A stretch of 64,000 nt of DNA from Escherichia coli (GTDB lineage: Bacteria > Pseudomonadota > Gammaproteobacteria > Enterobacterales > Enterobacteriaceae). This document shows, piece after piece, positions 14,960 to 20,226 of the stretch. The position numbers and the translations under genes were made by a program. Position 1 is the first letter of the stretch; every line of letters begins with the position of its first letter. The notes beneath the pieces were generated by a model. It saw only the letters and a program-made list of their open reading frames with translations. It was not told the DNA's origin and did no database searches. The DNA lies in NCBI RefSeq assembly GCF_050920415.1, contig NZ_CP169309.1; one strand, 5' to 3'.

Positions 14960-15000
14960 GCTGAAACAGAAGTATTATGCTTTCTTGAAACGTTTCAGCG
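14960..15000. promoter_or_regulatory. Cra (FruR) operator(s) of the fruBKA promoter
   Basis: Palindrome TGAAACGTTTCA at 14986-14997 and half-site GCTGAAAC at 14960, about 90-120 bp upstream of fruB. Confidence 0.75.
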
Positions 15001-15085
15001 CGATCTTGTCTTTAACCCTAAGCCAGGTTGGCGCTTTTTTTCTCATAGAAGCTGAATCGTTTCAATTCAGCAAGAGAGGAGAACT

Positions 15086-17170: not shown

Positions 17171-18862
17171 ATGAAAACGCTGCTGATTATTGACGCTAAT
17201 CTCGGTCAGGCACGCGCCTATATGGCGAAGACCCTGCTGGGCGCGGCGGCGCGAAAAGCAAAACTGGAAATCATCGACAATCCGAACGACGCTGAAATGG
17301 CGATTGTTCTCGGTGATTCCATCCCGAACGACAGCGCGCTGAACGGTAAAAATGTCTGGCTGGGCGATATTTCCCGGGCAGTTGCGCACCCTGAGCTGTT
17401 CCTGAGTGAAGCCAAAGGCCATGCGAAACCTTACACTGCACCGGTCGCTGCGACAGCACCAGTTGCCACCAGCGGTCCGAAACGCGTAGTTGCGGTGACA
17501 GCTTGCCCGACTGGCGTAGCACACACATTTATGGCGGCTGAAGCCATTGAAACCGAAGCGAAAAAACGTGGCTGGTGGGTGAAAGTTGAAACCCGTGGTT
17601 CTGTTGGCGCGGGTAATGCGATCACCCCTGAAGAAGTAGCCGCAGCGGATCTGGTGATTGTGGCGGCAGATATCGAAGTGGATCTGGCGAAATTTGCTGG
17701 TAAACCGATGTATCGCACCTCTACCGGTCTGGCGCTGAAGAAAACCGCGCAGGAACTGGATAAAGCGGTTGCTGAAGCAACGCCGTATGAACCGGCGGGC
17801 AAAGCTCAAACAGCGACCACTGAAGGTAAGAAAGAGGGTGCAGGCGCTTACCGTCACTTGCTGACGGGCGTCTCTTACATGCTGCCGATGGTCGTTGCAG
17901 GTGGTCTGTGTATCGCGCTTTCTTTTGCTTTTGGTATCGAAGCGTTTAAAGAGCCGGGTACGTTGGCAGCGGCGCTGATGCAGATTGGTGGTGGTTCAGC
18001 CTTTGCGCTGATGGTGCCGGTACTGGCAGGTTACATTGCCTTCTCCATTGCCGATCGTCCGGGTCTCACGCCGGGTCTGATTGGCGGTATGCTGGCGGTC
18101 AGCACCGGTTCTGGCTTCATTGGGGGTATTATTGCGGGCTTCCTGGCTGGTTACATTGCGAAGTTAATCAGTACGCAACTGAAACTGCCACAGAGTATGG
18201 AGGCGCTGAAACCGATCCTGATCATTCCGCTAATTTCCAGTCTGGTGGTCGGTCTGGCGATGATCTACCTGATCGGTAAACCGGTTGCTGGCATTCTCGA
18301 AGGGTTGACTCACTGGCTGCAGACCATGGGGACTGCGAATGCGGTTCTGCTGGGGGCGATCCTCGGTGGCATGATGTGTACTGACATGGGCGGTCCGGTA
18401 AATAAAGCAGCGTACGCATTCGGTGTGGGTCTGCTGAGTACTCAAACCTATGGTCCGATGGCGGCGATTATGGCGGCAGGTATGGTGCCACCGCTGGCAA
18501 TGGGTCTGGCAACAATGGTGGCGCGTCGCAAATTCGACAAAGCGCAGCAGGAAGGTGGCAAAGCCGCTCTGGTTCTTGGTCTGTGCTTTATTTCGGAAGG
18601 TGCAATTCCGTTTGCTGCTCGTGATCCGATGCGTGTGCTGCCGTGTTGTATCGTTGGTGGGGCGCTGACTGGCGCAATCTCAATGGCGATTGGTGCGAAA
18701 CTGATGGCACCGCACGGTGGTCTGTTTGTTCTGCTGATCCCTGGCGCTATTACGCCGGTACTGGGTTACCTGGTAGCAATTATTGCCGGTACGCTGGTGG
18801 CGGGTTTGGCCTATGCCTTCCTGAAACGTCCGGAAGTGGACGCAGTAGCGAAAGCAGCGTAA
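17171..18862 (+). CDS. fruA: Fructose PTS EIIB'BC component
   Basis: 563 aa; N-terminal IIB-like domains and C-terminal multi-TM IIC. Confidence 0.95.
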   Translation: MKTLLIIDANLGQARAYMAKTLLGAAARKAKLEIIDNPNDAEMAIVLGDSIPNDSALNGKNVWLGDISRAVAHPELFLSEAKGHAKPYTAPVAATAPVATSGPKRVVAVTACPTGVAHTFMAAEAIETEAKKRGWWVKVETRGSVGAGNAITPEEVAAADLVIVAADIEVDLAKFAGKPMYRTSTGLALKKTAQELDKAVAEATPYEPAGKAQTATTEGKKEGAGAYRHLLTGVSYMLPMVVAGGLCIALSFAFGIEAFKEPGTLAAALMQIGGGSAFALMVPVLAGYIAFSIADRPGLTPGLIGGMLAVSTGSGFIGGIIAGFLAGYIAKLISTQLKLPQSMEALKPILIIPLISSLVVGLAMIYLIGKPVAGILEGLTHWLQTMGTANAVLLGAILGGMMCTDMGGPVNKAAYAFGVGLLSTQTYGPMAAIMAAGMVPPLAMGLATMVARRKFDKAQQEGGKAALVLGLCFISEGAIPFAARDPMRVLPCCIVGGALTGAISMAIGAKLMAPHGGLFVLLIPGAITPVLGYLVAIIAGTLVAGLAYAFLKRPEVDAVAKAA

Positions 18863-18873
18863 TAAAAGGTGTG

Positions 18874-18902
18874 TTACAGGGCAGAAATTTCCTGCCCTGT
18901 AA
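18874..18902 (+). terminator. Hairpin immediately after fruA
   Basis: Inverted repeat ttacagggcag...ctgccctgtaa 12 bp after the stop; no clear T-tract. Confidence 0.45.
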
Positions 18903-19017
18903 CATTTGATGAGCGCAAAGGGAATGACCAGTTTGTGAATGTAATTTTATGAATTTAAATGGTTTTATCTTTCAGTAGAAACCTGAAATGTTCATCAAAC
19001 ACTAAGGTTATTTCCTC

Positions 19018-19045
19018 AAGGGCAGATTATTTCTGCCCTTTTTTA
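19018..19045 (+). terminator. Canonical intrinsic terminator
   Basis: gggcaga-ttattt-ctgccc stem-loop followed by TTTTTT. Confidence 0.6.
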
Positions 19046-19284
19046 GTGTTCCTGTTCTGTGCATCCCGTCACAAATTCCTCACTTTTGTAATTCAGGCAT
19101 TTAATCGCATTTTGTGAGCCTGCTCAAATCTGCCCATTTTGCCTCTCTGGCGGCAATTTACTTTACGTAAAACATGCATACTATGAGCACATGTTTAAAT
19201 ATGAACACATGTTTAAACCGTCTTTGCAGTATCTATATTCTTGTGGATTGACAGGGTTGGTAATTTTTTACCAGAGGACGTGCT

Positions 19285-20226
19285 ATGCGCGAAAAGGATT
19301 ATGTCGTAATTATAGGCTCGGCGAATATTGATGTCGCCGGATATTCACATGAATCATTAAATTATGCGGATTCAAATCCAGGTAAAATAAAATTTACGCC
19401 TGGTGGGGTAGGGCGCAATATTGCACAAAACCTGGCGTTGCTGGGTAATAAAGCCTGGCTACTGAGCGCCGTAGGCAGTGATTTTTATGGTCAATCGCTG
19501 CTAACGCAAACTAATCAATCTGGCGTTTATGTCGATAAATGCCTGATTGTGCCGGGAGAAAATACGTCGAGCTATTTATCATTACTCGATAATACCGGTG
19601 AAATGCTGGTTGCTATAAATGACATGAATATTAGCAACGCTATTACAGCTGAATATCTCGCACAGCACCGTGAATTTATTCAGAGGGCAAAGGTCATTGT
19701 CGCGGACTGTAATATCAGTGAAGAGGCACTGGCATGGATTCTGGATAATGCCGCCAACGTACCCGTATTTGTCGATCCTGTTTCTGCGTGGAAATGTGTC
19801 AAAGTGCGCGACCGTCTAAATCTGATCCACACTCTCAAGCCAAACCGCCTTGAAGCGGAAACCCTGAGTGGGATTGCGTTGTCAGGGCGTGAAGATGTGG
19901 AAAAGGTTGCCGCCTGGTTCCATCAACATGGCCTGAACCGACTGGTATTGAGCATGGGCGGCGACGGCGTTTATTACAGTGATATTAGCGGTGAAAGTGG
20001 TTGGTCTGCGCCGATTAAAACCAATGTCATTAATGTTACCGGAGCGGGCGATGCCATGATGGCGGGACTTGCTTCGTGTTGGGTAGACGGAATGCCGTTT
20101 GCCGAATCTGTTCGTTTCGCACAGGGATGTTCGTCAATGGCGCTCTCCTGTGAATACACCAATAACCCCGATTTATCGATTGCCAACGTTATATCGTTAG
20201 TGGAGAACGCAGAATGTCTGAATTAA
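19285..20226 (+). CDS. psuK: Pseudouridine kinase (PfkB family)
   Basis: 313 aa; ATG at 19285; overlaps psuG by 13 nt. Confidence 0.9.
   Translation: MREKDYVVIIGSANIDVAGYSHESLNYADSNPGKIKFTPGGVGRNIAQNLALLGNKAWLLSAVGSDFYGQSLLTQTNQSGVYVDKCLIVPGENTSSYLSLLDNTGEMLVAINDMNISNAITAEYLAQHREFIQRAKVIVADCNISEEALAWILDNAANVPVFVDPVSAWKCVKVRDRLNLIHTLKPNRLEAETLSGIALSGREDVEKVAAWFHQHGLNRLVLSMGGDGVYYSDISGESGWSAPIKTNVINVTGAGDAMMAGLASCWVDGMPFAESVRFAQGCSSMALSCEYTNNPDLSIANVISLVENAECLN

Follow-up and report, generated by a model that had tools for sequence, protein, structure and literature searches.

A terminator hairpin on both sides of a spacer downstream of Escherichia fruA: one copy ends the transcript and the other is probably retained as a non-terminating element

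Introduction

Several described systems place a stable hairpin between a stop codon and the end of the transcript. Intrinsic terminators combine a GC-rich stem-loop with a U tract, and tandem terminators, in which two such elements follow one another, are common. Stem-loops of the REP/BIME class, when located in 3' UTRs, stabilise the 3' ends of mRNAs (malE-malF and related), and Liang, Rudd and Deutscher are said to have found in 2015 that REPs close to a stop codon reduce translation. Finally, the usual layout of RNAs that bind Hfq is an unpaired stretch ahead of a U6-bearing terminator, and the small RNAs and sponges derived from 3' UTRs share the terminator of their parent mRNA.

Here, we analyse two hairpins that follow fruA in a 64-kb stretch of Escherichia coli chromosomal DNA, the whole of which is referred to as the window. 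This part of the chromosome carries fruB-fruK-fruA followed by psuK-psuG-psuT. The intergenic region between fruA and psuK (19285-20226, on the plus strand like fruA) is 422 bp long and contains hairpin 1 (HP1), an AT-rich spacer, hairpin 2 (HP2) and the psuK promoter region (Table 1). Taken together, our analysis makes it probable that HP2 with its U6 tract is the ancestral fruA terminator, that HP1, on the other side of an insert, is a copy of this hairpin that has been retained although it does not terminate transcription, and that the spacer is not a conserved gene.

Table 1. Coordinates of the features downstream of fruA in the window
Feature	Position	Strand	Evidence
fruA coding sequence (PTS fructose IIBC)	17171-18862	+	ORF list; RefSeq annotation of a 100%-identical record and of K-12
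HP1, non-terminating copy of the ancestral fruA terminator hairpin (probable)	18871-18905	+	Fold, Term-seq, conservation
AT-rich spacer, single copy, K-12-type Escherichia allele only	18906-19017 (112 nt)	+	Identity, database comparisons
HP2 with U6, Rho-independent terminator of fruBKA	19018-19044	+	Terminator scan, fold, K-12 Term-seq, alignment, 80-locus survey
Rest of the fruA-psuK intergenic region with the psuK promoter region; outside the hairpin feature, sets its downstream boundary	19045-19284	+	Sequence, conservation

Results

Annotation of the fruA-psuK intergenic region

The gene that the initial annotation placed before the hairpins is indeed fruA, as the same open reading frame bears this name both in a 100%-identical RefSeq record and in K-12. 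Its stop codon TAA (18860-18862) is followed directly by a second in-frame TAA (18863-18865). The counterpart of the intergenic region in K-12 MG1655 is 98% identical (NC_000913.3 2259297-2259718, minus strand), and no RefSeq annotation falls within it. A sequence scan of 18863-19017 found no promoter-like site.

The interval between the hairpins as first delimited (18903-19017) does measure 115 nt. Its description as ORF-free holds in that there is no credible gene, although a mechanical 52-aa ATG open reading frame is present at 18959-19117. This frame is open in E. coli alleles, but E. whittamii and Escherichia sp. E1V33 have a stop in it after 4 codons; no Shine-Dalgarno sequence was seen upstream of it. 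Because it also runs across the HP2 terminator and the mapped transcript end, it was rejected as a candidate and is almost certainly not a gene.

The fruBKA transcript ends at the second hairpin

Folding of the window sequence recovered both hairpins where they had been described, or slightly wider. HP1 begins 9 nt past the fruA stop codon and consists of a stem of 14 pairs (18871-18884 with 18892-18905) and the loop AAAUUUC. Its predicted energy is -24.0 kcal/mol (z = -6.4 against shuffles), a value that no shuffle equals. This is a GC-rich stem-loop of the kind seen in intrinsic terminators (14 bp, -24 kcal/mol), followed by a 3' tail, UUUGAUGAG, in which 3 U are succeeded by GAUGAG; as had been noticed at the outset, HP1 has no T tract. 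Other alleles have the tail UUGAUGAU or CAAACGCAAA.

HP2 has a stem of 9 pairs, 5 of them G-C (19018-19026 with 19032-19040), around a 5-nt loop, UUAUU, and folds at -15.2 kcal/mol (z = -4.4 against shuffles). T6 follows directly at 19039-19044, its first two T also pairing with AA at the base of the stem, and a consensus scan calls HP2 as a terminator on the plus strand. In the predicted fold of the 182-nt 3' UTR, HP1 and HP2 each pair locally with a probability of about 1 (1.0 for HP1). An RNA switch through cross-pairing of HP1 with HP2 was considered and rejected, the crossed fold being 28 kcal/mol worse (-63.5 for the local against -35.9 for the crossed structure).

The stem and the loop lie within the ranges typical of intrinsic terminators (about 5-14 bp and 3-8 nt), and together with the T6 they agree with the initial view of HP2 as a canonical terminator, as does a published 3' end. 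More specifically, Term-seq of K-12 MG1655 lists a single 3' end in the intergenic region, at 2259536(-), classed as 'orphan' (Adams et al., 2021; PMC7815308). According to the flank printed with it and to coordinate mapping, this K-12 position is the last U of the U6 behind HP2 and corresponds to 19044 in the window. Of the tabs in supplementary file 1, the third alone contains this end, an assignment that is fixed by a neighbouring entry found in all three tabs; judged from the order given in the caption, this tab is M63 glucose. At the HP1 equivalent (22596xx), the K-12 tables for the three conditions hold no entry, in cultures grown without fructose where fruBKA is low and in a thresholded list that could miss a minor HP1 end. 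This distribution is the reverse of the one that the initial annotation had set against its own proposal, namely 3' ends at the first hairpin only.

HP2 is thus the working terminator of fruBKA, and the transcript stops there, leaving a fruA 3' UTR of 182 nt in the window. The same study reports a Rho termination region centred 3 nt past 2259536(-), with upstream and downstream reads of 44 and 28 in untreated cells and of 43 and 97 after bicyclomycin (PMC7815308). This read-through indicates that transcripts which pass HP2, or start beyond it, are limited by Rho.

The two hairpins share a common origin

Both stems contain AGGGCAGA ... CTGCCCT. The pattern GGGCAG-N3-12-CTGCCC matches the window at two places only, both of them here, for 0.02 expected matches, and two matches occurred in 0 of 100 shuffles; the likeness of the two stems is therefore not due to chance.

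To place the pair in context, the region downstream of fruA was compared across 80 Enterobacteriaceae species (80 loci). At 30 non-Escherichia loci, including those of Citrobacter, Enterobacter, Klebsiella, Atlantibacter and Pseudescherichia, fruA is followed by one GGGCAG...CTGCCC hairpin with T5-8 directly behind it, commonly as AAGGGCAGAGATTTCTCTGCCCTTTTTT. This single hairpin starts 16-45 nt past the stop codon (16-29 nt at 29 of the 30 loci). The two-hairpin state is limited to Escherichia among the surveyed loci: there, a GGGCAG hairpin without a T tract is located at 17 nt, and a second copy with T6 at 157 nt, that is 140 nt further on.

The flanks identify which parts of the ancestral arrangement each copy has kept. 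Upstream of HP1, 12 of 16 nt match the 5' flank of the Citrobacter hairpin in a hand count. HP2, its T tract and its 3' flank align with the single terminator and 3' flank of Citrobacter and Enterobacter, and the one fruA terminator that Citrobacter, Enterobacter and Klebsiella possess is the orthologue of HP2. In C. amalonaticus, C. sedlakii, E. soli and E. asburiae, the psuK promoter region comes directly after the single terminator, which indicates that the order fruA-terminator-psuK is ancestral. Since HP1 keeps the ancestral position and 5' flank while HP2 keeps the T tract and 3' flank, the two hairpins are related by common descent, which gives the initial remark that the stems are sequence-related a more definite meaning. 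Read most simply, these alignments show a single ancestral terminator hairpin that has come to flank an insert of about 140 bp on either side, the upstream copy having been severed from the T tract. A TTAC just before the HP1 core was considered as the mark of an inserted element and is probably a coincidence.

Both hairpins are conserved and the spacer is not

Identity to the window was determined in E. whittamii, Escherichia sp. E1V33 and locus L003, in this order. The spacer is identical at 0.77, 0.84 and 0.66, close to the four-fold sites of fruA at 0.745, 0.815 and 0.72. The corresponding values are 1.00, 0.95 and 0.90 for the HP1 core (21 nt) and 0.93, 0.90 and 0.87 for HP2 with its T tract. 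From this comparison, which is based on 3-4 related lineages and, for HP1, on 21 nt, the spacer evolves at about the neutral rate with no excess conservation, and both hairpin cores are conserved above that rate. As the hairpins are conserved and the spacer is not, HP1 looks functional and the spacer does not.

A stable hairpin near the stop codon was found 5-9 nt past it, at -14 to -30 kcal/mol, in 14 of 14 Escherichia alleles folded, including the REP-containing allele described below. A consensus fold of this stop-proximal hairpin retains a 9-bp core, with little covariation. Its lower stem is unrelated between allele classes (TGTTAC/GTAACA versus CATCATC/GATGATG) and also varies within E. 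coli.

The conservation of HP1 bears directly on the possibility that the insertion left behind an HP1 and a spacer without function, with no selection anywhere in 18871-19017. The near-neutral spacer, which tolerates an IS1, a deletion and outright replacement (see below), is what such a relic would look like, and 6 of the 8 E. coli alleles compared have a T-T mismatch in the lower stem of HP1. We nevertheless consider this reading unlikely, because the HP1 core is identical at 19-21 of 21 nt in three other Escherichia species, where synonymous sites are at 72-82%, and is as conserved as the real terminator, and because a stable stop-proximal hairpin is found in both deeply diverged allele classes although the sequence of its lower stem differs. 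Judged by its conservation, HP1 is retained by selection.

The spacer is replaced, interrupted or deleted in natural isolates

Comparison of complete genomes revealed a second class of allele. Of 5426 complete E. coli genomes, about 1195 (~22%) have a REP pair in place of the spacer, as does E. albertii, and those ~1195 genomes match the window only as far as 27 nt before the fruA stop. In E. coli SF-468 (locus L083), the stop codon is followed by an 8-nt gap, a 16-bp hairpin (CATCATCGGGGCTGAGACATCTCTGCCCCGATGATG), an inverted repeat pair at L083 2860-2953 and then GAGGGCAGAAACATCTCTGCCCTTTTTC; from a comparison by eye with the REP consensus, we take this pair to be REP sequences. E. albertii carries the SF-468 arrangement, the segment from stop to terminator being 93% identical.

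The second allele extends well beyond the spacer. When L083 2776-4200 is compared with window 18836-20226, identity to the window is 81% for psuK and 89% for psuG, against 97% for the part of fruA that precedes the break. The second allele is therefore old, since psuK is only 81% identical against 97% for fruA. The two very different psuKGT alleles of E. coli are thus separated from a shared fruA by a sharp recombination boundary, located at the end of that gene. No homology was detected between the interiors of the two alleles (z = -0.5; the comparison of L003 with B2 is borderline at z = 2.25), and the L003-type allele, looked for among E. coli genomes, does not belong to E. coli. Both classes have a hairpin without a U tract, an unrelated interior and a hairpin with a U tract; they may go back to one event with later replacement of the interior, or to two separate events.

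Two further isolates carry disrupted versions of the window-type spacer. In E. coli strain 203740, an IS1 (L091 749-1446) lies between the HP1 side and the match to window ~18928, which indicates that the spacer tolerates disruption in a natural isolate. In Escherichia sp. MOD1-EC7003 (L004 2101-2300), HP2, the psuK promoter and psuK are deleted together with half of the spacer, and the remaining ~70 nt of spacer next to HP1 run directly into what by eye appears to be psuG coding sequence. With HP2 lost, a hairpin without a U tract stands alone downstream of fruA in this isolate.

Searches for a known element in the spacer gave little. A long-range helix is predicted between TTTGATGA (18905-18912) and TCATCAAA (18992-18999); of 8 E. 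coli alleles sampled, 6 have a G-A mismatch that weakens it. In a permissive E-value scan against Rfam, the best matches to the spacer, MIR4372 and DapZ, reached 17-22 bits, far below gathering scores. The spacer occurs at a median of 1 place per genome, has no match in phages, and its 'plasmid' matches are mislabelled chromosomes only; for these reasons a mobile-element origin, whether as a MITE or as a hairpin-ended IS200/IS605-derived element, is unlikely. The spacer also differs from REP sequences, which have a GCCGGATGCGGCGTAAACGCCTTATCCGGCCTAC-type consensus and are multicopy, in being single-copy and in having no homology to the REP-containing interior. A Cra (FruR) operator was considered and rejected, as only a half-site-like CTGAAA was seen by eye, at a place that varies among E. 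coli strains. The spacer holds no conserved gene of any kind; it drifts about neutrally and is dispensable in nature.

The 3' UTR associates with Hfq in K-12

We considered whether the 3' UTR, whole or processed to a fragment with its end at HP2, could be an Hfq-bound regulatory RNA that acts as a sponge or target of RprA and links the fructose PTS to Rcs/RpoS. The starting point is a reanalysis of K-12 RIL-seq data (Bar et al., 2021; PMC8175672), in which 'fruA.psuK.IGR' appears in 42 chimeric fragments with a single partner. The partner is RprA, because its 60 interactions and its second-in-chimera (SIC) score of 0.969744 fit that RNA. The U tract recorded for the fragment is 6, consistent with HP2, and one Hfq CLASH hybrid from K-12 also includes the interior of the spacer.

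A candidate pairing site is present in K-12. In a search with 22-nt windows, the best match was nt 137-154 of the intergenic region (ACACUCAGGUUAUUUCCU, a site that begins ACACUCAGG), just 5' of HP2, which is predicted to pair with RprA nt 34-51 at -21.5 kcal/mol in a duplex of 14 bp and a 2x2 internal loop. An equally good duplex was obtained in 5 of 60 shuffles of the spacer, however, and the C that completes the pairing belongs to K-12 alone among 8 E. coli alleles. The corresponding stretch of the window (18999-19016) has A at 19004, as do six other alleles, and with this A the site falls out of the top matches.

The behaviour of the fragment is that of a target. Its own SIC score is -1, meaning that it always comes first in the chimera, with one partner; its probability of being an sRNA is 0.001 according to the published classifier (PMC8175672); and the RprA chimeras were obtained in one of three RIL-seq conditions only. 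The region is, in addition, near-neutral and absent from ~22% of E. coli genomes. Like an sRNA, the 3' UTR ends at a terminator with U6 that it shares with its parent mRNA and is associated with Hfq in K-12 data; second-in-chimera behaviour with many partners and a conserved seed are features of sRNAs that it does not have. A regulatory RNA of this kind is therefore quite improbable, and our search of the literature found no named sRNA or terminator study at fruA/psuK (yeiC).

The earlier suggestion of a small 3'-derived RNA thus holds to the extent that the 3' UTR is found, weakly, on Hfq in K-12, and fails where a gene is meant, as the RNA is target-like and its spacer drifts and is replaced, interrupted or deleted in Escherichia. 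In K-12, the region is transcribed as a 3' UTR that is able to associate with Hfq, and these data do not make it a conserved sRNA. It is probably a long but ordinary 3' UTR and not a small-RNA gene, although, given the Hfq-associated reads, the spacer may have some role at the RNA level in K-12.

HP1 as a terminator on either strand

The initial annotation also offered a two-stage (tandem) terminator, in which HP1 would stop some polymerases and HP2 the rest. HP1 invites this idea, being a strong GC-cored hairpin followed by three U and descended from a true terminator. The sole 3' end listed by Term-seq in K-12, on the last U behind HP2 with nothing at HP1, argues against it. Furthermore, UUUGAUGAG makes a poor U tract, and at the HP1 position of the second allele class (ACAAACGCAA) and of other Escherichia species a U tract is wholly absent. 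A hairpin that is conserved where the U tract is absent is not being conserved as a terminator, and we regard two-stage termination as very unlikely.

It is scarcely credible that the feature instead serves the opposite strand, with an antisense RNA running through the spacer to end at HP1. In favour of it, the minus strand continues past HP1 with CACCUUUUAU, which a scan finds terminator-like, and a 2025 RIL-seq preprint (PMC12262471) lists a plus-strand K-12 fragment antisense to fruA, 'psuK.fruA.IGR' (2259516-2259595, window ~19065-18986 on the minus strand), in 35 chimeras with Spot 42. Against it, the U run begins 4 nt off the stem, the second allele class lacks a U-rich tail here, the Term-seq tables have no '+'-strand 3' end in 2259xxx, and a scan of the minus strand over 19045-19300 gave no promoter-like site. 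The chimeras with Spot 42 are also a weak signal, with an odds ratio of 4.8 and p = 1.9e-4 for an RNA that has >3 million reads (PMC12262471).

Regulatory regions on either side

Downstream of HP2, putative psuK promoter elements are TTTACT at 19157-19162 (-35) and TACTAT at 19179-19184 (-10). They are followed by direct repeats of CACATGTTTAAA at 19188-19199 and 19206-19217, with a period of 18, which are probably an operator. Motifs similar to CACATGTTTAAA, ACACATGTT, follow the fruA terminator in Citrobacter and Enterobacter. A recurrent adaptive SNP from the mouse gut, psuK/fruA 2257444 A>C (PMC7518454, PMC9509342), would by our mapping fall at 19159 in the window and change TTTACT to TTGACT; as this lies 16 nt upstream of TACTAT, the SNP is likely a -35 up-mutation. 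The fruA spacer thus adjoins a promoter that is repeatedly hit during adaptation to the mouse gut.

At the other end of the operon, K-12 Term-seq reports a strong 3' end at 2263539(-), 44 nt upstream of the fruB start, in all three conditions and with an intrinsic-terminator score of 9.6 (PMC7815308). Its counterpart in the window is 15042 (region ~14987-15071), after GGCGCTTTTTTT and between Cra-operator-like palindromes TGAAACGTTTCAGC (14987-15000) and GCTGAATCGTTTCAATTCAGC (15051-15071). This end could belong to a short leader or to an upstream transcript that stops before fruB.

Discussion

We propose the following course of events. In the Escherichia lineage, about 140 bp came between the fruA stop codon and its terminator, with the ~21-nt hairpin on both sides. 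RNA polymerase now passes HP1 and stops at HP2, producing the 182-nt 3' UTR. The AU-rich spacer may then be cut, and the HP1 stem-loop would block 3'-to-5' exonucleases and so spare the fruBKA coding RNA, in the manner of REP sequences. By analogy with these, HP1 is probably kept as a stabilising stem-loop just past the stop codon; as it lies within 9 nt of that codon, it may also affect the termination of fruA translation.

For the annotation of the locus, the consequence is that the fruBKA operon ends at the second hairpin, with a 3' UTR of ~180 nt that annotation ignores and that leaves its 3' end an 'orphan' in Term-seq. More generally, the locus is a clean natural case of a split terminator, where one copy loses its U tract, stops terminating and is apparently retained as a structural element. 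It also calls for caution when searching for sRNAs: a hairpin, an AU-rich spacer, a terminator and Hfq reads need not amount to a conserved sRNA gene.

Two more far-reaching readings, an insertion footprint at the palindromes of intrinsic terminators and a young RprA sponge or target of the K-12 lineage, are jointly improbable in our estimation, and each would have consequences. If insertion did target terminator palindromes, it would regenerate a whole hairpin on both sides of the insert, and this would explain how two unrelated interiors, the AT-rich spacer and the REP pair, came to lie between the same hairpins. If the RprA reading were true, fructose uptake would be coupled to the Rcs/RpoS stress network.

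Returning to the split terminator, which we favour, its parts can be set against known systems. HP2 is like other intrinsic terminators in its GC-rich 9-bp stem, 5-nt loop and U6, with the 3' end on the last U. Unlike tandem terminators, only one of the two copies terminates: HP1 has neither a U tract nor a mapped 3' end, so that HP1 and HP2 do not form a functional tandem terminator. The fruA 3' UTR resembles the sources of Hfq-dependent sRNAs and sponges such as CpxQ, SdhX, SroC and GlnZ in its shared mRNA terminator, U6 tail and Hfq reads and, in K-12, in a candidate site for base-pairing immediately upstream of HP2; it differs from them in being target-like, with one partner in one condition and no conserved seed, and in having a near-neutral spacer that is missing in many strains. 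The closest likeness of HP1 is to REP/BIME elements, as it is a very stable extragenic stem-loop between a stop codon and a terminator, and ~22% of E. coli genomes have a real REP pair between the same two hairpins. HP1 itself differs from REP/BIME elements in that it has no REP similarity, is single-copy and derives from the locus's own terminator.
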